Origin: Actinomycetota bacterium
Lineage (GTDB): Bacteria; Actinomycetota; UBA4738; HRBIN12
Length of the DNA: 41,252 nucleotides
Direction of reading: 5' to 3'
NCBI GenBank assembly: GCA_050692535.1
Contig: JBOGVL010000001.1
Coordinates: 1 to 41,252 of the forward strand
Part shown: positions 6,623 through 38,587 of the stretch, in pieces
Layout of the letters: each line of letters starts with the position of its first letter
Position numbering within the stretch: position 1 is the stretch's first letter
Notes under the pieces: model-generated
Databases searched by the model: none
Seen by the model: only the letters and a program-made list of their open reading frames with translations
Told to the model about the DNA's origin: nothing
Program-made: the position numbers and the translations under genes

Positions 6623-6682
6623 ATACGATCGTCGCTCCAAGCGGCACGCCTCCACGGTCGGTGGATGGCGAGGCCGGCAAGT

Positions 6683-7540
6683 CTATGTGCGGCGTTCGGC
6701 CTCCTCCTCCGGCCCGGGGTGCTTCTCTTCGGGGGACAGGTGCATGCCTTCGGTCGAGGATCGTTTTGGCTCGAATGCCGGCGCCGGCTGTTCGTCCTCG
6801 ATGTGGGTCGACACCCGCTTTGCGAATCGGAACCCTTGGCGGTGCGGTCCAGGCTCCGTCGGTTCGTTGCCCGGGCTGTCGAGATACCGTCGAATGCCGT
6901 TCGCGAACTGGATCCCTTCGAGTTGATTGTCCGTCAGCACCTCGCCATCAGCCTCCTTTGGCGCGAGAACGTCGCGAACCAGCAAGAACAGCGTTGGATG
7001 GTCGAGCGAGCCGGGGTCCCAATGTTCGTCGCCGGGGATCTCGACGTGGCCGTAGACGTGCGGATCATCCCAGACCTCGGATCGACGATAGTACGTGTCC
7101 ACCGCCGCCGGCAGGCGGTCGAGTCGGGTCGGCCACCGACGGGGACGCCGCAACGCCGTCGAGACGAAGCCGCGGCGATGCAGGAGCGCCAAGAGCGCAA
7201 CGAGCGGAGCGAGGCTCGAGGCCTTCGGAAGCCAGGGATCGAGCCTGGAGAACTCGACGATCTCGATCTGGAGCAGATCATGATCGTGTTCGTCGACGGC
7301 GGAACCTCTCGCCCAGAGCGGTCGATGTTGGCCGATGACGTCTTCGCCGACCTGGAACTCGGTCGGAAAGCGGAGCTGCTCCACATAGCCGTCCGTCTGC
7401 GTCGTGTGGAGGCAGAGCAGCGGGTTGTTCCGACGTCGGCGTTCGTATGGACCCTGCGGGAAGTGCTTGACCTCGACGAGCGTCCCGTTCGGCCCCGGAA
7501 GCTTCCCCACGACCCATCCGTTGTCGATCTCGTACGTCAC
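6683..7540 (-). CDS. Hypothetical protein, possible amidase_2/PGRP-like N-acetylmuramoyl-L-alanine amidase domain
   Basis: 285 aa. The LCLHTTQTD ... HVYGHVEIPGDEHWDPG pattern resembles Zn-amidase_2 motifs. There is no signal peptide. The functional call is tentative. Confidence 0.5.
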   Translation of the reverse strand: MTYEIDNGWVVGKLPGPNGTLVEVKHFPQGPYERRRRNNPLLCLHTTQTDGYVEQLRFPTEFQVGEDVIGQHRPLWARGSAVDEHDHDLLQIEIVEFSRLDPWLPKASSLAPLVALLALLHRRGFVSTALRRPRRWPTRLDRLPAAVDTYYRRSEVWDDPHVYGHVEIPGDEHWDPGSLDHPTLFLLVRDVLAPKEADGEVLTDNQLEGIQFANGIRRYLDSPGNEPTEPGPHRQGFRFAKRVSTHIEDEQPAPAFEPKRSSTEGMHLSPEEKHPGPEEEAERRT

Positions 7541-7576
7541 GCCCTGTATCCGATCGCCATCCGCCGCGCCAGCGGC

Positions 7577-9052: not shown

Positions 9053-9533
9053 TGCCCCCTCCTCGATCGCGTGGCGCCTTCCTATCACGACCCTGGCGAG
9101 CACGTCTCGGCCGGTCACCGAACGGGCCGACCACCGTCGAGGATCAAGCGGGGATTCCGCCGAGGATCCGGTGACGCCCCCTCAATAGGCCTACGATATG
9201 GACATGCTCCGCCTCAGGGTCGACCTGTCCGGCGAGGCCGACGCAGGTGCCCCCCGCGGACTCACCTGAACTGACCACGAGGGCGCAGGGGCCCATCTCG
9301 TTCTCCACCGATCGGCGTCCGTATGAAGCTGTGCTCGTGGGTCAGTGGATGTGCGCAGGCGACCTCGAGCGACGCCGAACTCTGCGAGTACCACGACAAG
9401 GTCTCGGGAGGTCTCTCCGCGAGAGCGCGGAGGCCGGCAAGGTGGCGGCCCGTCGGCTCCTTCGGCGGCAGCGCGGTGCTCCGGGACGCCGCGATGAGCG
9501 GCGCGGACCTCCCGAACTGATGGAGGAGGGACC

Positions 9534-9788
9534 ATGAGCAGCCCGACGGAGCGGATGAACTCGGACCAGCGCAACGTCTATTTCGAGCCGCCTCACTACA
9601 CACCCGACGAGATCGACGCGGTGCTGTCCGACGGGACCCACCTGAAGGCGGCCTACCAGCTCGAAGGGCGGCGCCTCGGGTTTAGCCGCTCGCTGCCGGT
9701 CGGAACGCTCATCCTGCTGGACGGGGTTCGCGGCTGGGTCGTCGGATCGCCGACGCCCGCGGGCTTGGACGAGCAGGCCCCCGCCTAG
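9534..9788 (+). CDS. Hypothetical protein (84 aa)
   Basis: ATG 9534 is preceded by GGAGGAGGG. I recognise no family. Confidence 0.45.
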   Translation: MSSPTERMNSDQRNVYFEPPHYTPDEIDAVLSDGTHLKAAYQLEGRRLGFSRSLPVGTLILLDGVRGWVVGSPTPAGLDEQAPA

Positions 9789-10019
9789 CGCAGCTCAGGG
9801 GGCGAGCAATCGGTCGATGAACGCGGATCTCCGGCTCCCAGGTGACCGGCCCACATCCCGGTGAAACACGGCGCAGGATTGATCATCGAGTGCTCCCCAC
9901 GGCGAAGCGGGTTCCCGAGCTGGCAATCTGCAGATCTCACGGCTGGCCCGAACACGTGACGCCGGCGGCGCCCTCACACACCGGCCGCCGCCCGCGCGCC
10001 ACCGAAGTTCGGTTCGGAC

Positions 10020-11840: not shown

Positions 11841-12111
11841 CGCCAACCCCTCTCGTCCGGCGACCCCAGCCCTGAGGCTATCTCGGTCTCGGCCCGCGTG
11901 GAGGCCGCGAGCGCGCCCGCACAGACGAATGACGAATATCGGGGCGATCGATCTTCGATGTGCTCGTGCGGACAACACGTGCTGGTCGGGGCACACTTGT
12001 CCAACGTGGACGACGAGGGCAGCTGAGCGGAGCAGTCCTGACCGAGATCAAGGGCAATCAAAGGCCTGTGTGGAAGGTCCCGCCCCCTGGAGTGGCCCCG
12101 CCCCCGGGGCG

Positions 12112-12501
12112 TTACACGACGGCGACGGCGTCGATCTCGACGAGGAATTCGGGGCCCAAGCCGGCGACGACGTGGACCGTGATGGCCGGCGGTGGGTCGG
12201 CCGGGTTCCACGCCTGCTGGAAGGCGGCGACACCCTCGTCGAACGCGTGGCCGTCCACCACGGCGATGGTCCAGTGCACGATGTTCGCCAGGCTCGCTCC
12301 CTCGCTCTCGAGGATGGTCGCGAGGTTGCGGAACGCCTGGCTGGCCTGCTCCCCGACGGTAGGACCGACGACCTTGCCGTCGACGTCGACGCCGTTCTGT
12401 CCGCCGATGTAGATCGTCTTCGCCGGCTGTTCGACCACGACGGCCTGGCTGAAGGCCGGGCTGCGGTGGAGTCCCTCGGGGTTGATGTGCCGTGTGCTCA
12501 T
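12112..12501 (-). CDS. RidA/YjgF/L-PSP family protein
   Basis: ATG 12501 follows AGAGGAGGG. The sequence reads ...SQAVVVEQPAKTIYIGGQNGVD...FRNLATILE...VEIDAVAV. Confidence 0.9.
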   Translation of the reverse strand: MSTRHINPEGLHRSPAFSQAVVVEQPAKTIYIGGQNGVDVDGKVVGPTVGEQASQAFRNLATILESEGASLANIVHWTIAVVDGHAFDEGVAAFQQAWNPADPPPAITVHVVAGLGPEFLVEIDAVAVV

Positions 12502-12647
12502 GTGTCGCCCTCCTCTGACGATGACACCAGTCACAGTAGGCCCAGGTGTACGCACGAGGAGCTCCTTCCGCCGATTGAGACGGTCGGTGCTTCGTCCGGC
12601 CGGATGGGTGGATTCGTCAGCGAATCTGCTGTGTCGATCTCAAACAG

Positions 12648-12857
12648 CTACTCGGCGCGATCCCGTGTCGGCACAAGACGGAACGGATGACCTGCCGGGT
12701 CGGCGAAGACCCGCGAGCGGTCGGGCCCCGACCGTCGAACGGCCGGCACATCGCGACCGTCATCGTCGTTCACGACTCCGGGCGGCTCCATCCCGAGGCG
12801 ATCATTCTCACGACGACCGCGCCGAGGAAGTCGGAAATCCGGGGTTACGTGTGTCAC
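12648..12857 (-). pseudogene. Possible C-terminal remnant of a VOC-family gene
   Basis: The ORF tail ...RVFADPAGHPFRLV matches the conserved C-terminus of the intact VOC gene at 17034-17417 (QVYADPAGHPFCLC). The rest is not VOC-like and there is no credible N-terminus. Confidence 0.3.
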
Positions 12858-13438
12858 TTCACGAGTTCGAATCGGAGGTGGGTGGCGCCCGGTGTCTCGA
12901 TCGAATTCGTCCTCCGCAGTTCGATTCCCTCAGGGTCGAGATCCTCGAAGAGCCGGACGCCGCCGCCGAGGAGTAAGGGGATCAAGTGGATCTGCATCTC
13001 GTCCAGCAGCCCGGCCTCCAGGTACTGCCTCATGATGTTCGCTCCGCCCCAGATGCCGACGTTCTTGTCGCCGGCGGCAGCACGGGCCAGCTCGAGTGTG
13101 GCCTCGATCCCATCCGTCACGAACGTGTAGGTCGTACCGCCCTGCATTGGCAGAGGCTCTCGCGCTTCGTGAGTCACGATGAACACCGGCATCCCGTAGG
13201 GCGGAGGGTCGCCCCACGGCTCGAAACCGACGTCGAACATCCGCTTCCCGATCACGACCGCCCCGGTCGAAGCAAAGAGCTCGTCCACGATCGCGGCGTC
13301 GGTCTCCGTCTTGGCATCGAACTGCCAGTCGGAAAGTCGACCGGGGTCGTTTCCCTCCAACGGGCTTCCGACGCCTGCTTTGGGATCAGTGATGAAACCA
13401 TCGAGCGACATCGAGACGTGGGACGTGACCTTGCTCAT
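12854..13438 (-). CDS. Dihydrofolate-reductase-like (RibD_C) family protein
   Basis: ATG 13438 follows GAAGAGGAGGG. The sequence reads MSKVTSHVSMSLDGFI...VVIGKRMFD...DEMQIHLIPLLLG. Confidence 0.9.
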   Translation of the reverse strand: MSKVTSHVSMSLDGFITDPKAGVGSPLEGNDPGRLSDWQFDAKTETDAAIVDELFASTGAVVIGKRMFDVGFEPWGDPPPYGMPVFIVTHEAREPLPMQGGTTYTFVTDGIEATLELARAAAGDKNVGIWGGANIMRQYLEAGLLDEMQIHLIPLLLGGGVRLFEDLDPEGIELRRTNSIETPGATHLRFELVK

Positions 13439-27300: not shown

Positions 27301-27562
27301 ACCCCGCGAGGGCACCGAGTGCTGGTTCGGCAATCACGAACAATGCCACGCAGAAGGCGTGAAGACTCCAGAAGTACGCGAGTCCTGTCGTCGCGAGCGT
27401 GGTCGAGGATCCCGGCAGAGCTCACCTTCGACCTGATGCTCGACGGCCGAAGCGGCCCCGAGCGGGACTGTCGTAGGGTCGTACACGCACGCCTTCCCTT
27501 CGTCTGGAGGAAGCTTGGCGGATCGAGCGCAATACCGAACGCCGCGGGCCACGTAGCCACCG

Positions 27563-28537
27563 ATGCGGTTCATGATCCTCGTCCGGGCCTCGCCGGCGTC
27601 CGAAGCCGGCGCGATGCCGAAGGAGCAGCAGATCGCGGAGCAGCTCGCGTTCCATCAGGCGATCGACGGGGCCGGCATCCTGATCGACGCGATGGGCTTC
27701 CATCCCACGTCGAAGGCCTGGCGTGTGCTGCAGCGGACCGACGGGTCCCGCGAGGTGATCGAGGGACCGTTCCACGACGATCACCTGATCGCCGGCTACA
27801 CATTGATCGACGTGGCGTCGCGCGAGGAGGCGATGGACTGGTCGCTCCGCTACGCGAAGACCGCCCTCGAGGGCGAGGACGGGGAGATCGAGGTTCGCCA
27901 GCTGTTCGATCTCGACGAATTCGTCCAGGGCCCCGCCGTTCACGGGTTCCGGGAGCTCGACCTGGTCGGCCGGATCGCCGCCGACGTGGGACGGTCCCGA
28001 CCCGACCTGTCCCGAGCCGTCTCCCCGGACGGCACCGTGACCGTCCTGTTCACCGACATCGAGGGATCGACGCAGCTCACCGAGGCGCTCGGCGATGCCG
28101 AGTGGATCCGCGTGCTCCGCGCCCACAACGCGATCGTCAGGGATCAGGTCGTCGCCCATTCGGGCATCGAGGTGAAGTCCCAGGGCGACGGGTTCATGCT
28201 GGCGTTCGCGTCCGCTGAGGACGCCCTGGGCTGCGCGATCGAGATCCAGCGGGCGCTCGTTCAACCTCTCTCGGATGGGCTTCGGCTCCGCGTGCGGATC
28301 GGGCTCCACACCGGCGAGCCGATCCGCGAGGAGGACGACTTCTACGGGAAGGACGTGGTCCTCGCAGCGCGGATCGCGGCGGAGGCACGGGGAGGTGAGA
28401 TCCTGGTCTCGAAACTCGTCCGAGAGCTGACGGAACGCTCCGGGCTGTTCTCGTTCACGGATCCCACCGACGTCGAGCTCAAAGGCCTTTCCGGCATGCA
28501 CTCCCTGTCGGCGGCTCGTTGGCAGACAGGTCTCTGA
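27563..28537 (+). CDS. YCII-related domain fused to a class III adenylate/guanylate cyclase catalytic domain
   Basis: The N-terminus MRFMILVRASPASEAG...FHDDHLIAGYTLIDVASREEAMDW is YCII-like. The C-terminus VTVLFTDIEGSTQLTE...KSQGDGFMLAF...GLHTGEPIREEDDFYGKDVVLAARI is a cyclase domain. Confidence 0.85.
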   Translation: MRFMILVRASPASEAGAMPKEQQIAEQLAFHQAIDGAGILIDAMGFHPTSKAWRVLQRTDGSREVIEGPFHDDHLIAGYTLIDVASREEAMDWSLRYAKTALEGEDGEIEVRQLFDLDEFVQGPAVHGFRELDLVGRIAADVGRSRPDLSRAVSPDGTVTVLFTDIEGSTQLTEALGDAEWIRVLRAHNAIVRDQVVAHSGIEVKSQGDGFMLAFASAEDALGCAIEIQRALVQPLSDGLRLRVRIGLHTGEPIREEDDFYGKDVVLAARIAAEARGGEILVSKLVRELTERSGLFSFTDPTDVELKGLSGMHSLSAARWQTGL

Positions 28538-28647: not shown

Positions 28648-28709
28648 GGTGCCCCCGGGAGGAATCGAACCTCCGACTCGCGGTTTGGGAAACCGCTGTC
28701 TCCGTGAGC
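28648..28709 (-). pseudogene. tRNA-Gly(CCC)-like fragment or pseudogene (anticodon arm, variable loop, T-arm and 3' acceptor strand intact; no canonical D-arm or 5' acceptor)
   Basis: The rc reads GCTCACG-GAGACA-GCGGT/TTCCCAA/ACCGC-GAGTC-GGAGG/TTCGATT/CCTCC-CGGGGGC-A-CC. The expected 5' strand GCCCCCG is absent. Confidence 0.55.
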
Positions 28710-28793: not shown

Positions 28794-30170
28794 TCACGAA
28801 GCCGAAGGTCGGAGCCGGACCTCGACGCGTGTCCCCTCGCCGGGTTCGCTCGAGACGACGACGGTGCCGCCCCACTTCTCGGCGAGGTCGCTCGCGATCG
28901 CGAGGCCGAGCCCCGAGCCTCCGCTCGGCGCCCCGCGCCCGCGGTAGAAGCGTTCGGTCACGCGCGCGACCTCGTCCTGCGGGATGCCCGGCCCGCGGTC
29001 CCGGACGGCCACGAACACGCGTCCGTCCCGCTCGCCGGACTCGATGGTGATCTCACCCGGCGCGTACGAGGTCGCGTTGTCGACCAGGTTGTCGAGGATC
29101 TGGTCCAGGTCCGACGGGTTCCCCTGCGCGAGTCCCGCCCGGCCCTCGGCGACGACCGTCGAGCCCCGCTGCCGGGCCCGCTCGTCCCACCTCGCGATCG
29201 CCCGGGTGACCGACTCGGCGAGGTCGACCTCGGCCGCTGCGCCCTCCTCGATCTCGCGCGACATCTCCAGGAGCCGGTCGACGATCCCCGAGAGCCGATC
29301 GACCTCCTTCTCGGCGGCCTCGAGCTGGCGTTTGACGCCGTCGTCGCCGGCCTGGTCGATCGCCGACTCCAGGCGCAGCTTCATGCCGGTGAGCGGCGTC
29401 CGAAGCTGGTGCGAGGCGTTCGCGACGAACTCGCGCTGCGCCCGGACCGTGCGCTCGAGCCGGCCGGCCATCTCGTCGAACGAGCGTCCGAGCTCGGTGA
29501 TCTCGCTGGCGCCGCCGACCTCCTCGGCGCGCGCCGACAGGTCGCCGGACCCGAGCCTCCTCGCCGCGCCGGCCAGCCGCGTCAGCGGCCGCGAGAGCGA
29601 TCCCGCCAGCCCGAACGCGAGCACCAGCCCCGCGACCAGCCCGGCCGCGCCGATCGCCAGCAGCCCGAGCGTGACCCGCCGGACGTTGTCGTTGACCTCC
29701 TGCACGTCCTGCGTGATCCGGACCGCGCCGACGATCTCGCCCGCCTGGCTCCGGAGCGGCACCGCCGTCGCCATCAGGTCCTGGCCGAGCGTCTCGCTTC
29801 GCCGGATGTCCGACGTCGACTCGCCCCGCTCGAGCGCCGCCGTGATCTCCGGCCGCTCCCCGTTGAGGTAGTTCTGGCCGACGTCCTGCCCCGCCGAGTC
29901 GGCCAGGACGACGCCGTCGGCGGCGATGACCACCACGCGCGCGCTCGCGAGGCCGGCCGAGTCGACCACGAACGCGTCGAGCTCCGGAGTCTGTGCCAGA
30001 TCCCGCGGGTCGAGCGCCGCCGCGATGCCCTGCGTCGTGATGAGCGCGGAGTTCTCCAGCTCGGCCGTGGCGCGTGCCCGCAGGTTGATCGTGAGCGGGA
30101 GGCCGAGCGCGACGATCAGGACGAGCAGGATGTACGCGAAGGCGATGACGAGGCGCGTGCGGACCTTCGT
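28794..30170 (-). CDS. Sensor histidine kinase (TM-sensor-TM-HAMP-HisKA-HATPase_c); non-canonical or unresolved start
   Basis: It has the H-box ASHQLRTPLT, the N-box LDNLVDNA, and the G-boxes DRGPGI and GSGLGLAI. The first TM helix (RLVIAFAYILLVLIVALGLPLTI) lies upstream of the first canonical start (GTG 29969). ACG 30170 sits 5 nt after AGGAGG. Confidence 0.8.
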   Translation of the reverse strand, partial: TKVRTRLVIAFAYILLVLIVALGLPLTINLRARATAELENSALITTQGIAAALDPRDLAQTPELDAFVVDSAGLASARVVVIAADGVVLADSAGQDVGQNYLNGERPEITAALERGESTSDIRRSETLGQDLMATAVPLRSQAGEIVGAVRITQDVQEVNDNVRRVTLGLLAIGAAGLVAGLVLAFGLAGSLSRPLTRLAGAARRLGSGDLSARAEEVGGASEITELGRSFDEMAGRLERTVRAQREFVANASHQLRTPLTGMKLRLESAIDQAGDDGVKRQLEAAEKEVDRLSGIVDRLLEMSREIEEGAAAEVDLAESVTRAIARWDERARQRGSTVVAEGRAGLAQGNPSDLDQILDNLVDNATSYAPGEITIESGERDGRVFVAVRDRGPGIPQDEVARVTERFYRGRGAPSGGSGLGLAIASDLAEKWGGTVVVSSEPGEGTRVEVRLRPSAS

Positions 30171-30179
30171 GGCAGCCTC

Positions 30180-30869
30180 CTACGCCTCCTCGGGAGCGAG
30201 GAACCGGAAGCCAACGCCCCGGATCGTCGTGATGTAGCGGGGCTTCGACGGGTTCTCCTCGATCTTCTTGCGGAGCCATGAGACGTGCACGTCGAGCGTC
30301 TTTGTGGGGCCGAACCAGTGCGGGTCCCACACCTCGTCCATGATCTCCTCGCGCTTGAGCACCTGCCCGGCGTTGGACATCAGGATGTTGAGCAGGTCGA
30401 ACTCCTTGGCGGCCAGCTCGAGGGTCTCGCCCGCCCGAGTGACCGTCCGCGAGGCCGGGTCGAGCCGGATGTCCCCGATCTCGACCGGCCCCGGCCGCAC
30501 GTCGGCCCGCCCTCGCCGCAGGATCGCCCGGATCCGGGCCGTAAGCTCGCGCATCGAGAACGGCTTGACCACGTAGTCGTCGGCGCCGAGCTCGAGCCCC
30601 ACCACCCGGTCGATCTCCTCGCCCCGAGCGGTGAGCATGATGATCGGCACGTCCGACTCACGCCGGATCTCGCGCGCCAGGTCCCGCCCGTCGCCGTCGG
30701 GAAGCATGACGTCCAGCAGGATCAGGTCCGGCGTGGCGCGCCCGTAGGCACTCCGCGCCGCATCGATCGTGCCGGCCACCTCCGCCTCGAACCCCTCACG
30801 CTCGAGGCTCTCGGCAAGGGGCTCCGAGATGGCCAGCTCATCCTCAACGACCAGTATTCGCGACTTCAC
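30180..30869 (-). CDS. OmpR/PhoB-family response regulator
   Basis: GTG 30869. The receiver reads RILVVEDE...LILLDVMLPDGDG...YVVKPF, followed by a winged helix ...YITTIRGVGFRF. Confidence 0.9.
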   Translation of the reverse strand: MKSRILVVEDELAISEPLAESLEREGFEAEVAGTIDAARSAYGRATPDLILLDVMLPDGDGRDLAREIRRESDVPIIMLTARGEEIDRVVGLELGADDYVVKPFSMRELTARIRAILRRGRADVRPGPVEIGDIRLDPASRTVTRAGETLELAAKEFDLLNILMSNAGQVLKREEIMDEVWDPHWFGPTKTLDVHVSWLRKKIEENPSKPRYITTIRGVGFRFLAPEEA

Positions 30870-30991
30870 GCCCGCGATGGTAGCGGGAGTTCCTATGGTC
30901 CTTCGTTCGGCCCAAGTCACAGCCGGGGTGCTCGAGCTCTGTTCCGGCACCATCGTTCCCTGCCCCGAGGTGCATGCTTCCGGCTTGCTTC

Positions 30992-31411
30992 CTACTCCTC
31001 CTTAGAGCCAACCGCATTGAGGACGGCATCTGCGATGTCGTGCATGGAGCCTCCCTTAACAACATAGGCGGTGGCTCCCGCTTGGAGCGCCTGTCGTTTT
31101 CGGAGTTCGTCATCGAACGTAGACAGCATGACAACGCGAGTCGCAGGCAGGCGGCCTACTATGATTTCGGTCGCCTGAATGCCCCCAATCCCCGGCATCT
31201 TGACGTCCATCAGGACCACATCAGGTGCGAGCTCTTGCGCAAGCTCAATTCCGCTTGCGCCGTCCCCAGCCTCGCCGACAACCGCGATGCCCTCTACCTC
31301 CAAGAGCTCCCGCAGGGCCTGACGGCTGTCCATACTGTCGTCTACAAGCAAGACGCGTGGCTGCGGGCGTGGCGTGGGTACAGGACTCATAGCGATCAAT
31401 CCGTCGAGCAA
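30992..31411 (-). CDS. Receiver-only (CheY-like) response regulator
   Basis: RVLLVDDS...VVLMDVKMPGIGG...VVMLSTF...AYVVKG, with no output domain. The start is TTG 31411 or ATG 31390. Confidence 0.8.
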   Translation of the reverse strand: MLDGLIAMSPVPTPRPQPRVLLVDDSMDSRQALRELLEVEGIAVVGEAGDGASGIELAQELAPDVVLMDVKMPGIGGIQATEIIVGRLPATRVVMLSTFDDELRKRQALQAGATAYVVKGGSMHDIADAVLNAVGSKEE

Positions 31412-31697
31412 TCGCCCCGCCTGGGCGGAATCGTGGGACGGAGTTCCTTGCTCCTCACAGGGTCTTCACTTGATTGTCGGCTATCGGTGAGGTCTTCCCG
31501 ATCCCCCGTTAGGCCAGTCAGGATGCGACTTTCGTTCAGGGTTCTGATCGGGCTACTCTTGACTCCAGATGGCCGCGGGGGGGAGAGGTGAGCCCACTTG
31601 GCCCTCGGCCATGACCTTCCTCGAAGCTCGCGTGCACTGCTAGACAGCCAATGGCGCAGCCAGCTCGCGGGCAGATAACCCTCCTGACGAAAAGGTC

Positions 31698-34600
31698 CTA
31701 ACGCTCAGCCCCGAGCCCTAGCGAGGCTTCGGCCATCTCCACTCGTGCAAGAGACGCCGCGTTCCCCTTTCGACGATACAGATCCGCTGCCGCCTGAAAC
31801 TCAGCGGAGGCGTGAAACACCTTCCCGGCGGCCTGGAGCACAATCCCTAGGTCGAGGTGTGCATCGCCAGCCATGCTGAGCAGATCCGACCCGGCGGCGA
31901 AGGCCACCCCTTCGCCTGCAAGTCGCTCCGCTTCCATGAGCTCCCCGTTGGCAGCCAGAACCTTGGATCGAACACCCCGCCAAGCCATCTGCGACGCGAC
32001 GTCGTCCTCGGCGGTGGCATGTTCACTCTCGATCGTAGCTCGCATTGCCTCGCTGAGATTCCCTTGTCGGTACAAGGCCTCCGCCAACAGCGCAACCGCC
32101 GTCGAGAGCATGCTCCGCTCACCCATTCTCTTCAGCGCCTCGACTGCCGGCCGCAGAACGACTTCGGCGCGGCCCGGATCCTCCGCAAAGAGCATCGCCG
32201 CTCCGTAGTGCATTCGGATGGATACTAGCCTCCATTCAGTGCCGAGCTTTCCTGCACGGATGACGGCGTCGTCCAACAATTTGCGCGCCTGGTCGAATCG
32301 ACCAGCCATTGCAAGGAGGAACCCAAGTCCTGCCAAAGCCTCGGGGTCCGGGCGTTGCGCGCTTGCCAGGTTCTTCTCGATGATCTGAATGCAGCGGTCA
32401 ACCGGGATGGGGCCATGCGCCACACCCAGACTCGAACGCTGAGCAGCCTCTCGCTCGTCGCCTGCCTCGCGTGCGAGACGCTGGCCGATCTCGTACGCCT
32501 CGACGGCTTCAATGGCTCTTCCGCGGCGACCCAGAGCATCTCCGAGAAGTCTGTGCGCTCTCGCAGCACCCGCTAACTCCCCCAGGCTTCGCAGCGCCTT
32601 CTCAGCATCGGCGGCAATCCGCTCAGTCTCCTGAGTGTTCGTGTCGTCGGGCGCACGCCAGAACCTAATATCCGTCTGTTCAAGACGGATACGCCATTCG
32701 GCTATCTCATTCCCAAGGCGGCGAGCATCAGTGAGTGCTTCGCCGAGTACCGACTCGGCCCCGTCCAGGTCACCCGTTTCGAACAATGCAACGCCTAGAC
32801 GCCACCCGATCTCGACCCGAAGGGGATTGTCCTTGTCGAGGAGGCCAAGGGCGCGGTTCAGCAAGCTGCTTGCTGCCGGATTGTCGTCCCGGGCGAGTGC
32901 TCGCACGCCGGCCGACCAGAGCCGAGTCCCGGCGCGATCCGCAAGGGACTGAGTGCCCGAATCGCGGATCCCCAACTCCACACGAAATCCATGTGCGGTC
33001 TCAAAGTGATACCCCACAATCTCCTCTAGCTCAGCTATGCGGCTACCGCTCCCGGCCTCCAGGTACCCTCCCAGCGCCTCGTGAGCCGCAGCCCGGGCTT
33101 CCTTAGACATCGCCCGATAGACCACGTCGCGGATCAGGTGGTGGCGGAACCTGAACGTCCGCCCACCGCTCGGGGACTCACTACGAACTGAGATCAGGTC
33201 CTTCGCATCAAGGTCATCGAGGAGCGTCTCAAGGTGCGTATGATCAAGGTCGAACGCCGCGAGATTCTGTGTCGTGAAGATTTGTCCAACCACCGATGCG
33301 TTTTCCAAGACACGGCGCTGAGCCCCTCCGAGTCGGTCGAGACGGGCGCCGATGAGCGCGTGAATCGTAGGCGGTATGGGGACTTCAGTGAGATCGGAGG
33401 AAGCTACCCAACGACCATCCGTCCATTGCAATAGCCCATCATCGATGAGCATAGCCACGAGCTCTTCGAGGAACAGTGGGTGCCCCTCGCCGGCTTCAAG
33501 AATTCGCTCACGTGCCGTGTCATCAATCTCGACGGGCCCCACGAGATTGTTGACCAGCATTGTGCTCTCCTCGCGGTCCAGTGGGAGCAGCGGCAGATTC
33601 ACAGCATCAAGGCGCCCGCCTCCCCAACCTGGCCGTCTCTCCACAATCTCCGCTCGTGTCATGCACACGACGAGGATCGTCACTCCGCGAGATGCCCGCG
33701 CAACGTGCTCGATGAGATCCAGGAGTGTTGTCTCAGCCCAGTGAATGTCGTCGAACACAAGGACGAGTGGGTGATCGCGAGCGATGATCTCGAACAACCT
33801 TCGTATTGCAAAGAGAGTCTCACCCGGTGCTGGGGGGTTCTCACTCAGGCCGAGAATGGAAGCTATCTGCTCCTCAACGAACCCGGCGTCCTCGGCCGAG
33901 CCCAAGAGTGTTCCTACTCTCGTTCGAGCGGCGTGAGCCAGGTCGGCGTCGTCGATTCTCGCAGCCTGCCGGACCATCTCGGCGACTGGCCAGAAGGTGA
34001 TGTCTCGTCCGTATGACAAGCAGTGGCCGGTCAACACGGTCGCGCTTTCGCGCGCCTGGACCAGGAACTCGCTTACAAGTCGTGTCTTTCCAACGCCCGC
34101 GGATCCAAGCAGGGTGACAAGCGAGGCTCTTCTTCCTAGCGAGGCCCGCGCAAAGGCTTGCCGGAGGACTGTGAGTTCTTCTTGTCGGCCGACGAGAGGG
34201 GAGCTGAATCTGCGGCCCGCCGTGCGGACACTCATGTCATCCACCAACCGGAAAGCGCCTAGTGAGGATGACTCCTCCCCGAGAATAAGAATCTCGGTCG
34301 GTTCCATTCCCGCAGCGCGCTCAACGAGCCTGGCAGCGGCGCCCGACATTAGGACTTCACCTGGTCGGGCTGCTTGCGCGAGTTGGTCGGCCTCTTCAAT
34401 CGGTCCGAGAGTGAGGAGCCGCTGCTCAGCGGCGGAGGATTCAACGAGCGCTTCGCCAAGTCCGATTCCCATACGAGCCGCGAGCGCGACCCCGTTTATC
34501 GCGTCAGCCCCCCCACCTCGCGAAGACGTGGCGCGAAGCTCCATCGCCGTACGAACGGCTCGGGCAACGTCGTCCTCGTGCACTCGGGGCACCCCGAAGA

Positions 34601-35567
34601 CGGCACTGATTCTCCCAACGACGACCTCGTAAACCCAGCCGCCATAGGACTCAATGACCCCTCTTGCGTCCTGTACGGCCCGGTCCAGGGTGGCCTTCCC
34701 CGCTTCCGGATCGTCCGTGGGTCCTGCACCGGTCGAGAATCGGCAGACAAGGGCGGCAACGGTCTTCCTGAGGGTGCGCGGGTCGGTTTCGTCGGCTAGC
34801 GCCGGCGAATTGAGAGCGGCATCCTGCGCAAGGATCTGTCGTTCGAGTCGCCGAATAGCCGGGCCGACCTCGATACCAACCTCGGTAGAGAGTCGATGCC
34901 GGAGTTGGGTGATCGAATCAAGAGCCTCCGCTTGCCGCCCGGTTCGGTACAAGGCAATGGCAGCCAAACCGTGGATCCGCTCGTTGAGAGGGAGTGCTGC
35001 CCGCAAGGCCTCAAGCTCAGGCACCGCCTCGACATGTCTGCCAAGAGCCAATTGCGCCTCCAGTCGTTCGGCTCGAGTGGCGAGGAGCAGTTCATCCAAC
35101 TCGGCGAGCTCGGGCTGCGGCACGCCAGGGATGTCCACGTTTGAGAGAGGGGTTCCCTTCCACAGCTTCAGAGCTCGATCTAGCGTGTCCCACGCGGCCC
35201 TGTACTCGGCGTGGGCCATTTCTGCACGGCCTTGCTGAGCCAGCCTGCGGAACTCGTCCAGATCCAGTCGATCGGGGCCAACATGCAAGACGTAGCCCCT
35301 GTCTCGCGATTCCAGGATCACCGTTGGATCGCCGTCTATCAGTTTCCTGAGACGCGAAACGTGCATCTGCAGCGCGGTACGAGCGGTGGCAGGCGGCTCG
35401 TCTCCCCAGAGGGCGTCAATGAGTGTCGGGGAGGAGAAGACCTGCTCTGCGCCGAAAAGGAGGACAGCCAGCAGCCCCTTGAGCTTGGAGCCGCGAAAAG
35501 GGATTGGTGACCCGTTCCGCTCGACCTCAAGAGGCCCCAACACCCGAAAGACCAGGTGATCAGCCAT
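31698..35567 (-). CDS. SARP (OmpR-type wHTH + BTAD) - degenerate cyclase-homology domain - AAA/STAND P-loop NTPase - TPR multidomain regulator (1289 aa)
   Basis: ATG 35567. The SARP region is FRVLGPLEV...LKGLLAVLL...ALWGDEPP...ALQMHVSRLRK...LDLDEFRRL. The cyclase-like region is TVAALVCRFS...AVFGVPRVHEDDVARAV...ARMGIGLGEALV, which lacks the FxDxxGFT aspartates. Walker A is GSAGVGKT and Walker B is LVLVFDDIHW. The C-terminal 550 aa are TPR-like. Confidence 0.9.
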   Translation of the reverse strand: MADHLVFRVLGPLEVERNGSPIPFRGSKLKGLLAVLLFGAEQVFSSPTLIDALWGDEPPATARTALQMHVSRLRKLIDGDPTVILESRDRGYVLHVGPDRLDLDEFRRLAQQGRAEMAHAEYRAAWDTLDRALKLWKGTPLSNVDIPGVPQPELAELDELLLATRAERLEAQLALGRHVEAVPELEALRAALPLNERIHGLAAIALYRTGRQAEALDSITQLRHRLSTEVGIEVGPAIRRLERQILAQDAALNSPALADETDPRTLRKTVAALVCRFSTGAGPTDDPEAGKATLDRAVQDARGVIESYGGWVYEVVVGRISAVFGVPRVHEDDVARAVRTAMELRATSSRGGGADAINGVALAARMGIGLGEALVESSAAEQRLLTLGPIEEADQLAQAARPGEVLMSGAAARLVERAAGMEPTEILILGEESSSLGAFRLVDDMSVRTAGRRFSSPLVGRQEELTVLRQAFARASLGRRASLVTLLGSAGVGKTRLVSEFLVQARESATVLTGHCLSYGRDITFWPVAEMVRQAARIDDADLAHAARTRVGTLLGSAEDAGFVEEQIASILGLSENPPAPGETLFAIRRLFEIIARDHPLVLVFDDIHWAETTLLDLIEHVARASRGVTILVVCMTRAEIVERRPGWGGGRLDAVNLPLLPLDREESTMLVNNLVGPVEIDDTARERILEAGEGHPLFLEELVAMLIDDGLLQWTDGRWVASSDLTEVPIPPTIHALIGARLDRLGGAQRRVLENASVVGQIFTTQNLAAFDLDHTHLETLLDDLDAKDLISVRSESPSGGRTFRFRHHLIRDVVYRAMSKEARAAAHEALGGYLEAGSGSRIAELEEIVGYHFETAHGFRVELGIRDSGTQSLADRAGTRLWSAGVRALARDDNPAASSLLNRALGLLDKDNPLRVEIGWRLGVALFETGDLDGAESVLGEALTDARRLGNEIAEWRIRLEQTDIRFWRAPDDTNTQETERIAADAEKALRSLGELAGAARAHRLLGDALGRRGRAIEAVEAYEIGQRLAREAGDEREAAQRSSLGVAHGPIPVDRCIQIIEKNLASAQRPDPEALAGLGFLLAMAGRFDQARKLLDDAVIRAGKLGTEWRLVSIRMHYGAAMLFAEDPGRAEVVLRPAVEALKRMGERSMLSTAVALLAEALYRQGNLSEAMRATIESEHATAEDDVASQMAWRGVRSKVLAANGELMEAERLAGEGVAFAAGSDLLSMAGDAHLDLGIVLQAAGKVFHASAEFQAAADLYRRKGNAASLARVEMAEASLGLGAER

Positions 35568-35643
35568 GTTCCCCCCGGACCCAGTGGCGCGGCCCCAGCG
35601 TAACGGAGTCGCCAGGCTGGATGCCACTCCCGGACGGTCAGAA

Positions 35644-35672
35644 ACGTTAGCGCGGCGTTAGGGATGCGTTAG
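35644..35672. promoter_or_regulatory. Three direct heptamer repeats (A/G)CGTTAG with exact 11-nt periodicity; candidate SARP operator
   Basis: acgttag at 35644-35650, gcgttag at 35655-35661 and gcgttag at 35666-35672. The array lies in the divergent region between the SARP gene (ATG 35567, minus strand) and the 27-codon gene (ATG 35729, plus strand). Confidence 0.5.
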
Positions 35673-35728
35673 CGGCGCCGACGACTCTGGCCTCCAAGCG
35701 ACCCCAAGAAGGGGAAGGGAGGCAAGCC

Positions 35729-35812
35729 ATGCGAGCTCTCAGGCGTCTCGCCCTTGCGGCAGGCACGCTGTTCGCGCTCGCCCTCGCCGGCGGCGCGCAC
35801 ATCAGGTTCTAA
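35729..35812 (+). CDS. 27-aa signal-peptide-like micro-protein MRALRRLALAAGTLFALALAGGAHIRF
   Basis: It is not in the ORF track because it is too short. GGGAGG (35717-35722) lies 6 nt before the ATG. It is paralogous to 36192-36275, with only synonymous DNA differences across the shared C-terminus. Confidence 0.6.
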   Translation: MRALRRLALAAGTLFALALAGGAHIRF

Positions 35813-35929
35813 TGCGGCTTCGCACCGGATCCACCTAAGCGCGTAGCCGCCGCCTCCGGCGGCACCCGGCGTCTGCACCCGTCGGGGCGCCCGCTGGCGA
35901 GGTAGGCCGACTTTGAAGGGCGGTACAAG

Positions 35930-35953
35930 CGCCCCCGGCCTTAGTCGGGGGCG
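35930..35953 (+). terminator. GC hairpin followed by a T-containing tract, downstream of the plus-strand micro-ORF
   Basis: cgcccccg (35930-35937) / loop gccttagt / cgggggcg (35946-35953), then ttgcccttgggttcttc. A smaller hairpin, gccgccg-cctc-cggcggc, lies at 35846-35863. Confidence 0.35.
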
Positions 35954-36128
35954 TTGCCCTTGGGTTCTTCTGCCCCCCAGCCTCATGACTGGGCAGGACG
36001 GCCCCCAAGGAGTGCGTAGGGTCGGCTCCCGCGGATCCTCCCCTTCGCCCTATCCCAGGGAGTCGCCGCGGCGAGGCCGCAGCTACGGTCCTTTCTGGGT
36101 GGGTGTGTTTGACGAAATGCACACACCA

Positions 36129-36159
36129 CGTAGGCTCCGGGGGTCTCCCGGAGCCTACG
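36129..36159 (-). terminator. 13-bp perfect-stem hairpin 33 nt downstream of the minus-strand micro-ORF
   Basis: cgtaggctccggg (36129-36141) / loop ggtct / cccggagcctacg (36147-36159). An adjacent 7-bp hairpin, ggtgtgt...acacacc, lies at 36102-36127. Confidence 0.4.
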
Positions 36160-36191
36160 GAATGACTTTCGACGACTTGTGGTCGGTGGAA

Positions 36192-36275
36192 CTAGAACCG
36201 GATGTGAGCGCCGCCGGCCAGAGCCAGCGCCGCGAGCGAGCCGACCGCAATGGCGAACCGCTTGATCAGCTTCAT
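36192..36275 (-). CDS. 27-aa signal-peptide-like micro-protein MKLIKRFAIAVGSLAALALAGGAHIRF
   Basis: It is not in the ORF track. GGAGG lies 7 nt upstream of ATG 36275. It has the same length and the same C-terminal 12 residues as 35729-35812. Confidence 0.6.
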   Translation of the reverse strand: MKLIKRFAIAVGSLAALALAGGAHIRF

Positions 36276-36359
36276 CTCTCCACCTCCCTCAAGGACTGCT
36301 GGGAGACCTAGCCCCCCGGCCGATGCTGATATCCCCCACTCTCGTCCTCCCCAACAAAA

Positions 36360-36388
36360 GGAGGATGATTGGAGGAACTATCGGAGGA
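36360..36388. promoter_or_regulatory. Three direct GGAGGA repeats spaced 11 and 12 nt
   Basis: ggagga occurs at 36360-36365, 36371-36376 and 36383-36388, in the divergent region between the minus-strand micro-ORF and the HisKA_3 kinase. Confidence 0.35.
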
Positions 36389-36528
36389 CCCCCCAACGGC
36401 CCACAAGCCGCCTCTCCGCCCTACAGAACCCACCGTACGTAGTGGGCGCAGGCGAAGCCGCCGAAGAGGTGGTTTCAACTAGCTTCCTCAAAGGGCAAGA
36501 TGGGGCGTTCGCTCAGGAGCGGGTGAGG

Positions 36529-38067
36529 GTGACTCAAGAGGGCGCTCAGACGAGGTCGTCAACCCACAATTGGGCTCTGACTTTCTTCGAGCTCGCCGTT
36601 GTGATCCCAACCCTCACCCTCCTAACCGTAGGACTGGTCCGCGACGACGCCGCACCCATCGAAGAGGACTGGACCGCCCTCCTGATCTGGGTGGCGATCA
36701 TCGCGCTCGTTGAACTGATCCCCGTTCCGACATGGCGAGGAACTGCCATTGGGATGGGGTTCCCCTTGCTGATGGTTGTGGCGTTCATCTATGACCCGGT
36801 AGCAGCAGCAGCAGCAGCCTTCTTGGCCGCCTCGGATCCGCGAGAACTCAAAGGTGAAGTTGGCCTTCTTCGAGCCCTCTTCAATCGGTGCCAGGTCGCG
36901 TTGGCGGTTTGCGCTGCGAGTGCGATCTTCCATGAGCTCGCCTCAATCCACTCTTCAAATCCCTTGCGACTGTTGGCGGCGGCCGGACTAGCGGCGGTTG
37001 CTGACTACCTCGTCAACTTCACCCTGGTCGCTCTGGCGGCGGGCATCCATTATCGGATGCATCCCATACGAGTAATCAGACAGCTCCGCGTGGGGAGACT
37101 CACCGAGTTTGTCATCAGTTATCTCGGGCTGGCCGTGTTTGGCCTGATTCTCGCAAAGGTCTATCTGGAGACGGCCTTCTACGCGGTGCCCGCTTTCGTA
37201 ATCCCTCTGCTGCTCGCGAGGCAGATGTTCTTCCGCAGCAAGGCGCTCGAGGAGGCACACAAGGAGCTACAGGATCGCGAGCACGTGCTGCGCGCGTTGT
37301 CGAACCGGATGGCGGAGGAGCGACAGGACGAGCGGCAGCAGATCGCCGCCTACCTGCACGACGACCTGGCGCAGCTGCTCTTCCGGCTCTCGATCCAGGT
37401 GGACGTCGCGCGGCGGCATCTGGACAAGGGCAAGGTCGACGACACCGAGCGCGTGCTCACCGAGATCAAGGAGACGAAGAACAAGACGTCCGACCGGATC
37501 CGGGCGCTGATCCGAGACCTGCACCGGTCGCCTCTGGGGCGCGCCGGGTTGGGGGCGGCGCTGCACAGCTTCATCGCGGAGACGGGACGGGACTCCGAGG
37601 TGCAGTACCACACCGACATCGACGAGATCGACCTGCCCGCCCCGATCGCGCTGCTGATGTACCACATCGCCCGCGAGGCGGTCATGAACTCGCTCAAGCA
37701 CGCGAAGGCGCACAACATGTGGGTCGTCGTCAAGGAGAACGGCGACGAGGTGGAGATGGTCCTGCGCGACGACGGGGTGGGGTTCGACGTCGACGCGCCG
37801 GAGCCCGAGGGGCACTTCGGCCTGACGATGATGCGTGAGCGCGCGTCGGTCGGCGGCGGGACCTACGAGGTCGCGAGCGAACCCGGCGAGGGCGCCACCA
37901 TCACGGTTCGCTTCCCCACGTCCTGGCTGCAGGAGGACGGGGAGGGGGGGGCGGGCTCGGGATCGCACGTGCCGCTGCCCCCGCACCAGCCGCCGAGCCA
38001 CGACGATGTTTCCCCTGGTTCCTCCTCGAAGCCCGAGGACTCCTCGACGGAGAAGGTACGCGCATAG
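36529..38067 (+). CDS. Polytopic (about 7 TM) sensor histidine kinase, HisKA_3 (NarL-type) + HATPase_c
   Basis: GTG 36529 lies 9 nt after AGGAG (alternative GTG 36523). It has about 7 hydrophobic helices and no large extracytoplasmic loop. The H-box is IAAYLHDDLAQLL, the N-box is REAVMNSLKHA, and DDGVGF and GHFGLTMMRERA are present. Confidence 0.85.
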   Translation: MTQEGAQTRSSTHNWALTFFELAVVIPTLTLLTVGLVRDDAAPIEEDWTALLIWVAIIALVELIPVPTWRGTAIGMGFPLLMVVAFIYDPVAAAAAAFLAASDPRELKGEVGLLRALFNRCQVALAVCAASAIFHELASIHSSNPLRLLAAAGLAAVADYLVNFTLVALAAGIHYRMHPIRVIRQLRVGRLTEFVISYLGLAVFGLILAKVYLETAFYAVPAFVIPLLLARQMFFRSKALEEAHKELQDREHVLRALSNRMAEERQDERQQIAAYLHDDLAQLLFRLSIQVDVARRHLDKGKVDDTERVLTEIKETKNKTSDRIRALIRDLHRSPLGRAGLGAALHSFIAETGRDSEVQYHTDIDEIDLPAPIALLMYHIAREAVMNSLKHAKAHNMWVVVKENGDEVEMVLRDDGVGFDVDAPEPEGHFGLTMMRERASVGGGTYEVASEPGEGATITVRFPTSWLQEDGEGGAGSGSHVPLPPHQPPSHDDVSPGSSSKPEDSSTEKVRA

Positions 38068-38587
38068 CCCACACGACCAGCCACACCAGCCCGGCGTAGA
38101 TGAAGACGTCACCGATGCTGATCACCTGGTGGATCGGCCCCGCCACGGGGATCACGTCGGCCAGGAACTTCAGCACGTCGAAGTCTTCCATCAGGTGGTG
38201 TTTGTAGGCGCCCTCGTCGACGAGGTACCGGATGACGTCGGCCTGGCCGGAGGCCCGGAGCGCGTCCTCGCTCACCGGCATGCCCCCGTTGGACACGATC
38301 ACCGCCGCGTTGCACGCGACCCCGAGCAGGATCACCGGCATCCCCGGCAGCCGGACGTTGAGGACCCCGAAGGTCAGCAGCAGCGCGTACGAGAGCGCGA
38401 GCACGCCCGTGCGTGCGATGAGGTCGCTGCCGCCCCCGCCCTCGGGCAGCGGCAGGAACTGGATCCCGAGCCCCGCGAGGGCGAGCCACCACCACCGCAG
38501 GTGCAGCTGCTCGAGGTTGGTCAGCCGGCCGCCGAAGAGGTAGCCGAGGACGACGGCGAGCGCGAGGACGATGAGGTAGAGGCGCAT
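37901..38587 (-). CDS. DUF5317-like membrane protein with a 50-aa low-complexity tail
   Basis: ATG 38587. MRLYLIVLALAVVLGYLFGGRL...NAAVIVSNGGMPV...IGDVFIYAGLVWLVVW. Only the last 228 codons of the 786-aa ORF are credible. Confidence 0.75.
   Translation of the reverse strand: MRLYLIVLALAVVLGYLFGGRLTNLEQLHLRWWWLALAGLGIQFLPLPEGGGGSDLIARTGVLALSYALLLTFGVLNVRLPGMPVILLGVACNAAVIVSNGGMPVSEDALRASGQADVIRYLVDEGAYKHHLMEDFDVLKFLADVIPVAGPIHQVISIGDVFIYAGLVWLVVWAMRVPSPSRSPRASRRNQGKHRRGSAAGAGAAARAIPSPPPPPRPPAARTWGSEP

Follow-up and report, generated by a model that had tools for sequence, protein, structure and literature searches.

What does a bacterium gain from encoding nearly the same 27-residue peptide twice, once beside an intramembrane-sensing histidine kinase and once beside a very large SARP-type activator? 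The question is raised by a 41,252-nt complete contig of an NCBI metagenome-assembled genome (MAG) labelled Actinomycetota bacterium (P0121), hereafter the window, in which two convergent micropeptide genes, pep1 and pep2, lie between the genes for the regulator and the kinase. A preliminary description of this DNA had proposed a secreted-peptide, quorum-sensing-like cassette composed of the micropeptides, the polytopic kinase, a receiver-only response regulator (RR) and the SARP protein as both peptide receptor and activator, and every component that it named is indeed present in the window, several with refined coordinates. The answer favoured here, tentatively and at somewhat under an even chance, is that the product is a membrane micropeptide modulating intramembrane-sensing MASE9 kinases, with one of its two copies placed under SARP control. 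The four central genes are the following.

31698–35567, minus strand: SARP-LAL-type regulator of 1289 amino acids, start ATG at 35567 confirmed by P0121.
35729–35812, plus strand: pep1, 27-amino-acid micropeptide MRALRRLALAAGTLFALALAGGAHIRF, the copy predicted to be SARP-controlled, preceded by a GGGAGG Shine-Dalgarno sequence.
36192–36275, minus strand: pep2, 27-amino-acid micropeptide MKLIKRFAIAVGSLAALALAGGAHIRF, the kinase-linked copy, preceded by a GGGAGG-type Shine-Dalgarno sequence.
36529–38067, plus strand: MASE9-type intramembrane sensor histidine kinase of 512 amino acids with HisKA_3 (His277) and HATPase_c domains.

These genes were compared across about 65 related loci, obtained from kinase homologues on long contigs and from two degenerate DNA-pattern scans for the C-terminal motif of the peptide. 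The scan of one genome per GTDB species returned 13 matches (10 genuine, three by chance) and that of JGI metagenomes 62 (about 54 genuine, about eight by chance); the pooled set holds 34 distinct peptide sequences and 56 distinct 84-nt DNA versions. The genuine genome matches come from MAGs labelled uncultured Actinomycetes or Actinomycetota, with the one exception of a 2.8-kb contig binned as Dehalococcoidia. Loci from the pattern scans were screened for six query proteins only, the other loci being annotated gene by gene, and the peptide genes were assigned to classes by the 200 nt upstream and by their divergent neighbour.

To judge from their pattern of variation, pep1 and pep2 are conserved protein-coding genes, and the earlier proposal of two paralogous micro-ORFs (open reading frames) holds. 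Among the 56 DNA versions most of the variation falls at third codon positions (entropy summed over first, second and third positions, 12.3, 6.3 and 31.5), synonymous codon differences outnumber non-synonymous ones, and peptide length, stop position and a strong Shine-Dalgarno site are all fixed, features that together with the many orthologues identify them as real genes. At 84 nt they fall below the minimum length of Prodigal and are therefore missed by gene callers; Pfam and NCBIfam scans of the peptides gave no match, and nothing relevant to the motif was found in the searchable literature. The 34 sequences follow the consensus M-[KR]-x-x-[KR]-R-x-A-x-A-x-G-S-L-x-A-L-[AV]-L-A-G-G-A-H-x-[RK]-[FLW], that is, a basic N-terminus with K/R at positions 2, 5 and 6, about 17 hydrophobic residues (the hydrophobic stretch proper at 7–20) and the near-invariant C-terminus LAGGAH-x-[RK]-[FLW], in which (A/V)-L-A precedes GG in 34/34 variants. 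Such features recall a Sec signal, and they fit equally well a minimal N-in transmembrane (TM) anchor, with its basic N-terminus, some 17 apolar residues and interfacial H-x-R-F. Conservation spans the whole peptide and is stronger than in the neighbouring kinase. The two paralogues have diverged in their N-terminal halves and are identical in the C-terminal decapeptide; within a genome, the C-terminal tripeptides of pep1 and pep2 agree in five of six cases (IRF, IRF, MRF, VRL and MRF, VRL being lineage-specific), L041 being the exception. A double-glycine leader served by a C39 transporter was considered and rejected, the leader being hydrophobic, neither amphipathic nor acidic, and a transporter of this type not being linked.

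The genetic surroundings of the kinase-linked copy add the following elements.

36377–36439, minus strand: pep2 promoter, with the inverted repeat CGTAC-N10-GTAGG at 36439–36420, a -35 element TTGTGG at 36406–36401 and a -10 element GATAGT at 36382–36377.
36383–36400, minus strand: second palindrome, GGGGG(A/T)C(C/T)CCC, in the promoter spacer between -35 and -10, found in nearly all pep2 promoters.
36276–36376, minus strand: structured pep2 mRNA leader of about 100 nt, kept in about 47 related loci.
36129–36159, minus strand: probable pep2 terminator, a perfect 13-bp-stem hairpin 33 nt past the pep2 stop codon.
37901–38587, minus strand: DUF5317 membrane protein (Pfam 3e-32), convergent with the kinase gene and overlapping its 3' end.

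The divergent arrangement of pep2 and a polytopic HisKA_3 kinase over a common promoter region, which had been noticed from the window alone, is kept in all loci with enough flank. Genes of the pep2 type lie divergently from a kinase orthologue (53–100% identity) at about 230–275 bp wherever the contig reaches; in L035 the adjacent kinase, about 36% identical, converges on the peptide gene, and the contig does not reach to the divergent side. This class comprises 57 genes with the inverted repeat CCTAC-N10-GTAGG, a -35 element CTTGTG and a -10 element GATAGT, and the promoter is conserved over about 47 distinct versions, with the N10 spacing retained in 44/46. The palindrome occurs once per locus and is confined to the pep2-kinase intergenic region. 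In most genomes a second, paralogous kinase (33% identical), which shares the 7-segment sensor and has an intact H-box, lies on the other side of pep2 and convergent with it; in the window it is missing, with no remnants found between pep1 and pep2. The DUF5317 gene adjoins the kinase in every locus that reaches past the kinase 3' end. By this distribution, pep2, one or two paralogous MASE9/HisKA_3 kinases and the DUF5317 protein are the ancestral unit of the system.

HisKA_3 kinases are usually paired with NarL-family RRs, and in its geometry the TAC-N10-GTA palindrome equals the NarL 7-2-7 site. This likeness points to control of the two divergent promoters, those of pep2 and of the kinase, by an unlinked NarL-family RR. 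In agreement with the preliminary description, no DNA-binding RR stands beside the kinase: neither a LytTR protein nor any other cognate RR adjoins it in the annotated loci. The palindrome within the promoter spacer may serve a repressor as a binding site separate from CCTAC-N10-GTAGG. As to the leader, it opens with a conserved hairpin TCCCCC-loop-GGGG (TCCTCC...GGAGGA in the window), followed by a second stem whose sequence varies while its pairing potential is retained; because the C-runs of the leader are complementary to GGGAGG, translational control of pep2 by Shine-Dalgarno sequestering is conceivable. An Rfam scan of intergenic regions and leaders detected no known RNA.

The sensor itself points away from the extracellular recognition of a peptide. 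The kinase most likely starts at GTG 36529, since the 93%-identical P0001 matches at 512 residues, and not at ATG 36250, a start that would overlap pep2. Pfam recognizes HisKA_3 (PF07730, 1.9e-08) and HATPase_c (PF02518, 2.6e-12), and the H-box AAYLHDDLAQ is invariant. The MASE9 model (PF20972) scores the window kinase at 16.9 bits, below the cut-off of 24.3 that its orthologues P0004 (25.2) and P0019 (28.2) pass. An AlphaFold2 (AF2) model built from 50 homologues (predicted local distance difference test, pLDDT, 72), together with hydropathy, gives six full TM helices plus a re-entrant hairpin formed by short helices at 78–87 and 90–100, and no extracytoplasmic domain; the earlier proposal had about seven TM helices and likewise no such domain. 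In the model the last TM helix continues directly into the DHp helix bearing His277, and the topology obeys the positive-inside rule, with extracytoplasmic loops of 3–10 residues. These outer loops are the least conserved part of the kinase (column identity 0.33–0.53, against 0.79–0.87 for the inner loops), and E21, E62, D159 and E193, which belong to the conserved acidic and polar residues, map to the core of the membrane or to its inner leaflet. The tiny and poorly conserved outer loops make AgrC-like sensing of a near-invariant extracellular peptide a poor fit, and the likeness to AgrC, ComD and FsrC drawn in the preliminary description is not borne out for this protein of the MASE9/HisKA_3 type. 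MASE9 domains have been described as lacking an extracytoplasmic domain, with a ligand proposed to bind within the membrane (10.1101/2021.11.05.467447), and the modelled architecture of the window kinase agrees with that description.

The second copy of the peptide gene stands under signals of a wholly different kind.

35646–35674, plus strand: SARP-type heptamers GTTAGCG, GTTAGGG and GTTAGCG with 11-bp periodicity, the predicted operator of the pep1 promoter.
35683–35688, plus strand: -10-like hexamer of the pep1 promoter, GACTCT, separated from the preceding 3' heptamer by exactly 8 bp.
35945–35963, plus strand: terminator-like hairpin with a T-rich tail, 3' of pep1.

The regulator divergent from pep1 belongs, on its domain architecture, to the SARP-LAL class. 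It consists of an OmpR-type winged helix-turn-helix (HTH) with a BTAD domain (Pfam Trans_reg_C 3.5e-10, BTAD 5.4e-34), a degenerate cyclase-like segment, an AAA_16 STAND ATPase (1.1e-22; motifs GSAGVGKT, Walker A, at 488 and VLVFDD, Walker B, at about 604) and, towards the C-terminus, a TPR region that is matched by generic TPR models only, all below cut-offs except TPR_2. Its N-terminus matches AfsR (1e-35) and EmbR (2e-29) in the PDB; the NCBIfam AfsR model covers residues 19–287 and the TIGR03903 kinase/cyclase fusion model residues 275–882. Homologues carry PF00211, and in the cyclase segment an Arg (VCRFS) is read in place of the metal-binding Asp. A LuxR HTH is not apparent, Pfam giving no GerE match, and the combination of SARP, cyclase-like segment and LAL ATPase without a LuxR HTH is also the architecture of PimR (PMC5930380).

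The heptamer array is unique in the window, where 0.01 such arrays would be expected by chance, and L001 and L002 retain the heptamers, with variable spacers between them. Orthologues of pep1 adjoin SARP genes in L001, L002, L022, L055, L081 and L090, and equivalent arrays occur in L022, L055/L081, L041, L058, L040 and L090. Altogether the pep1-type class counts ten genes with three heptamers at 11-bp spacing and an eleventh, in L090, with two; where the flank allows, these genes are divergent from a SARP-LAL orthologue at 141–167 bp. The gap between the 3' heptamer and a NANNNT hexamer is 8 bp in 9/9 pep1-type promoters (in L002 by eye), the hexamers being GACTCT, CATCCT, CACCCT, CATCCT, GATGCT, GATGCT, CATGCT, CAGCCT and CAGCAT. 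In SARP-dependent promoters the 3' repeat likewise lies 8 bp from the -10 element (PMC10936776), and the PimR operator has, as here, three heptamers with 4-nt spacers (PMC5930380). The heptamer, moreover, varies with the SARP clade, reading GTTAGCG in the window, L001, L002, L022 and L040 and GTTACCG in L055/L081, L041 and L058. No promoter carries both the palindrome and SARP heptamers, so that the two classes are mutually exclusive; six peptide genes fit neither exactly, most of which still adjoin a kinase.

The pair of SARP and pep1 genes is found between the OmpR-type RR and the paralogous kinase (window, L001 and L002), directly after DUF5317 (L055/L081), about 5 kb from the kinases (L022) or without a kinase within 6 kb (L090), and in a fifth arrangement (L020/L046) the SARP gene is convergent with a pep2-type gene. 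With its recurrence in at least five arrangements, a box that tracks the SARP clade and canonical SARP geometry, the link made earlier between the SARP and the array in front of the other peptide gene is supported. It is predicted from this that pep1 is a direct SARP target and apparently the only local one, and the pep1 and SARP-LAL genes are, by their distribution, a mobile two-gene module. In the order that these data support, the SARP comes before pep1, as its putative activator, and not downstream, as a receptor for the peptide. The idea that peptides, kinase, receiver and SARP co-occur as one cassette does not hold, as most kinase+pep2 loci have neither SARP nor pep1 and the receiver is not syntenic.

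Several loci show what may happen around this module. In L040 (617–800, minus strand) the SARP-box promoter precedes two tandem peptide genes, the second with a divergent C-terminus (MAVLKRLTLAVSALLALVIGGGAHIKW). The gene that follows pep1 on the same strand is the paralogous kinase in L002 (7771–9587) and DUF5317 in L055 (2417–3313), so the SARP-dependent promoter may read through into different genes depending on the lineage. The L021 SARP-LAL protein (52% identical) has no peptide or kinase gene nearby; in the region 12050–13160 (minus strand), 1.2 kb past the 3' end of its gene, a TTAGCG-type array with 11-bp spacing faces small ORFs with signal-peptide-like N-termini, which suggests that other small secreted proteins can come under regulators of this SARP family. 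A more distant SARP-LAL homologue in L089 (39% identical) is accompanied by neither peptide nor heptamer array. In L001 (OY969934.1, a 3.45-Mb MAG chromosome) an insertion sequence (HTH_Tnp_1 + rve) splits pep2 from the kinase within 6300–10000, the paralogous kinase is seemingly fragmented and pep1 is frameshifted, disruptions that reflect either decay of the module or long-read assembly error.

In the favoured explanation, one micropeptide would be supplied by two genes under different control. Inserted in the membrane with its N-terminus inside, it would modulate the MASE9 kinases much as MgrB and SafA do PhoQ. Expression of pep2 would be set by the kinases' own NarL-family RR, a hypothetical protein, closing a feedback loop, while the SARP-LAL regulator, its STAND/TPR module activated by some cue, would switch on pep1 as a second source of the same peptide. 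The pep1 product would in this way act as a connector of a second input into the kinase pathway, as in AfsR → afsS and EvgA → safA. A membrane-resident modulator is favoured over a secreted signal because conservation over the whole peptide exceeds that of the kinase, because the annotated loci showed no export, processing or Opp genes linked to it and because its composition is that of a TM anchor. The preliminary description had noted for the window the lack of a dedicated exporter, protease or Opp importer; among the called genes of the annotated loci, too, no exporter or processing gene was seen.

Known small-protein/kinase pairs give this proposal its closest parallels. As in MgrB-PhoQ, SafA-PhoQ and LiaF-LiaS, the gene of a tiny single-TM-like protein adjoins that of a kinase, here one that is proposed to sense in the membrane; LiaS, as the kinase here, is a HisKA_3 kinase. 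As with MgrB and SafA, the promoter has an apparent RR operator, suggestive of feedback, and a second copy under a different regulator corresponds to the connector logic of EvgA → safA → PhoQ. Unlike in MgrB and SafA, to which there is no sequence relation, the peptide is shorter, at 27 residues, and has almost no extramembrane part, the kinase sensor is of the MASE9 type and the interaction with the kinase is a predicted one. On the SARP side, AfsR → afsS and PimR → pimM share the large SARP that combines a STAND ATPase with a C-terminal half of TPR/LAL type, PimR the degenerate guanylate-cyclase-like segment as well, and classical SARPs the direct heptamer repeats in front of a neighbouring gene; as in AfsR → afsS of Streptomyces coelicolor, the target is a small-protein gene. 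However, this target is a 27-residue hydrophobic peptide of membrane or secretory type, in contrast to the 63-residue hydrophilic AfsS or the PAS-LuxR pathway regulator PimM, no biosynthetic gene cluster lies nearby, the hosts are uncultured Actinomycetota other than Streptomyces, and the heptamer is GTTAGCG or GTTACCG instead of the known CGGCAAG.

A number of observations weigh against a membrane-resident modulator of the kinase. In the modelled topology the invariant C-terminus of the peptide would face the outer side of the membrane, where the kinase is least conserved, and with no conserved counterpart there the peptide may have another reader (the TPR domain, the Cache kinase or DUF5317). 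The sequence (A/V)-L-A|GG matches a site for signal peptidase I, and at 11–13 residues the h-region is short, both consistent with cleavage and release. Variability along the peptide showed no significant helical periodicity (p=0.43), a period-2 pattern being dominant, and so is uninformative as to a TM helix or a signal peptide. No GerE-type RR occurs in any locus, which leaves the NarL-type RR hypothetical. Finally, a SARP gene with its peptide gene stands without any kinase within 6 kb in L090, and the SARP-box peptide operon of L040 has no SARP gene in the 1.8 kb available upstream.

An alternative view is that the micropeptide is an output, a small membrane effector acting on some other target (a transporter, the envelope machinery, DUF5317 or the Cache kinase), with the MASE9 pathway inducing pep2 and the SARP-LAL protein inducing pep1 independently of each other. 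The non-overlapping promoter classes would be expected under it, as would an invariant C-terminus that finds no conserved partner on the kinase outer face, and the DUF5317 protein and an sCache/OmpR two-component system are constant neighbours across the loci. Small proteins as local targets are also well known, as exemplified by PhoP → mgrB and LiaR → liaI; AfsR → afsS is a further precedent (PMC10936776). Nevertheless, a strict divergent pairing with the kinase over a large evolutionary distance is the usual pattern of a sensor accessory, as is a peptide gene set between two paralogous kinases, and no candidate target stands out. We regard the effector as an unlikely explanation.

Doubtful to a similar degree is the secreted pheromone first proposed, in which a Sec-type pro-peptide is cut after (A/V)LA to release GGAHxRF or AHxRF, which the kinase senses from outside and the TPR region after import, with positive feedback on pep1 amounting to quorum sensing. 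The peptide has the n-h-c layout of a signal peptide, in which GG is preceded by an invariant A at -1 and by A/V at -3, and its paralogues differ at the N-terminus, share the C-terminal decapeptide and co-vary within genomes. The size of the precursor and its conserved C-terminal 7-mer recall SHP, PrgQ and ComS, and in the Rgg-SHP and PrgX-PrgQ systems of Firmicutes the precursor is likewise very short and conserved over its last seven or so residues. In Rgg-SHP, too, the peptide gene is divergent from that of a TPR-containing transcription factor, and the operator of this factor is part of the promoter of the peptide gene. For SARP-STAND TPR domains, that of AfsR included, no inducer is known (PMC10936776). 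However, several findings argue against this model. The h-region is conserved far beyond what is usual in signal peptides. The outer loops of the kinase are tiny and variable, in contrast to the near-invariant peptide, and no AgrB/ComAB-like, Eep-like or Opp genes were seen among the window genes scanned or in the annotated loci. Most genomes with pep2 and kinase have no SARP, so a TPR receptor is not a core part of the system, and the receiver-only RR is not conserved with it.

Nor does the locus belong to an established class of peptide signalling. The regulator is a 1289-residue SARP-STAND protein as opposed to the HTH-TPR fold of about 300 residues in RRNPP systems, most peptide-bearing genomes lack it, no Opp, PptAB or Eep genes are linked and none of Opp type lies in the window, so that membership in RRNPP is not supported. 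With the Agr, Com and Fsr systems it shares a peptide gene adjoining a polytopic kinase without a large extracellular domain. The resemblance ends there: the kinase is of the HisKA_3 + MASE9 type and not HPK10, a LytTR regulator is lacking, no AgrB/ComAB-type maturation gene was seen in the annotated loci, conservation is lacking in the outer loops, and the peptide is near-invariant and forms no pherotypes. Kinase class, regulator and maturation gene thus all speak against membership in the Agr/Com/Fsr group. A literature search for SARP-, TPR- and peptide-based quorum sensing in Actinobacteria gave nothing relevant, and a quorum-sensing loop formed by these parts is an unlikely reading.

The fullest version of the pheromone reading, which we consider distinctly improbable, is that the exported 27-mer is cleaved to a cationic heptapeptide GGAH-x-R-F that serves as an intercellular signal, read at the membrane by the MASE9/HisKA_3 kinases and, in SARP-bearing genomes, also by the intracellular TPR region of a SARP-STAND activator that amplifies pep1. 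If true, it would give the high-GC Gram-positives their first peptide quorum-sensing circuit, provide the first identified ligand class for both the SARP-STAND TPR domain and the MASE9 sensor, and represent the intercellular signal of an abundant uncultured lineage of soil Actinomycetota. The last alternative takes the micro-ORFs for products of chance, or for what is left of the signal peptides of decayed genes, and their adjacency for meaningless. It could appeal to their mere 84 nt, to their being skipped by standard gene finders and to the lack of a family model, but is effectively refuted by the fixed length, fixed stop and strong Shine-Dalgarno site shared by 34 peptide and 56 DNA versions, by variation mostly at third codon positions and by conserved promoters and terminators of their own.

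Small-protein/kinase pairs and SARPs that activate a small gene are already known in kind. What the comparison of loci presents as new is the micropeptide family, its obligate pairing with MASE9 kinases under a predicted NarL-type operator, and the mobile module of SARP-LAL and micropeptide genes. The family has no Pfam or NCBIfam model and no literature was found on it, yet it is more conserved than the neighbouring kinase, in a lineage common in soil metagenomes. MASE9, an orphan sensor domain, gains a testable candidate partner, and a SARP-LAL protein whose apparently sole local target is a micropeptide gene, and not an antibiotic pathway regulator, extends the AfsR-afsS logic outside Streptomyces. 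Should the peptide be secreted, it would represent a type of peptide signalling not known in Actinomycetota; should it stay in the membrane, it would be, to our knowledge, an early actinobacterial example of a kinase modulator or connector of the MgrB/SafA type.

The DUF5317 protein, a constant companion of the kinase, has the invariant motifs NGGMP, KHH and S-x-GD, which suggest an enzyme or transporter. As a peptide-processing enzyme it found no match in a PDB profile search or in NCBIfam, and no literature was found; a single-sequence AF2 model (pLDDT 52.6) was too poor for a fold search. The 3' overlap of the kinase and DUF5317 genes (37901–38067, about 167 nt) encodes low-complexity C-terminal tails in both proteins, and overlaps of 70–150 nt occur in related loci.

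The remaining features lie beyond the SARP gene.

30992–31390, minus strand: stand-alone NarL/LiaR-type receiver of 132 amino acids (Pfam Response_reg 7.8e-26), with a possible extension to TTG at 31411.
30180–30953: complete OmpR-type RR, directly following the receiver-only gene.
28794–30179: HAMP/HisKA kinase with a Cache domain, partner of the OmpR-type RR.
28650–28709, minus strand: tRNA-like match of 60 nt (Rfam 35.2 bits, above the gathering score), between the cyclase and HisKA kinase genes.
27557–28537, plus strand: YCII-related domain fused to a class III adenylate/guanylate cyclase domain, just upstream of the OmpR/HisKA system.

The receiver-only protein shares 35% identity with the receiver of E. 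coli NarL and, among full-length proteins, is closest to NarL/LiaR RRs; as a member of this family it could be phosphorylated by a HisKA_3 kinase. As it is adjacent in this genome only, its membership in the system is doubtful: the gene is absent from all other SARP/kinase loci, and its orthologues P0242 and P0247 (60–64% identical) occur in unrelated contexts, beside an ammonium transporter gene or pup. The role in the circuit once assigned to it is accordingly not supported. The GC content at third codon positions of the receiver-only gene (0.66) and of the SARP gene (0.67) is low compared with the flanking genes (0.88–0.95; OmpR RR, HisKA kinase and helicase 0.92–0.95), which, with a dip in GC content over this region, suggests that the two were acquired together and recently. 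The OmpR RR/HisKA kinase pair had gone unmentioned in the preliminary description. ARAGORN reported no tRNA in the window, and the tRNA-like match at 28650–28709 may be a truncated tRNA remnant.

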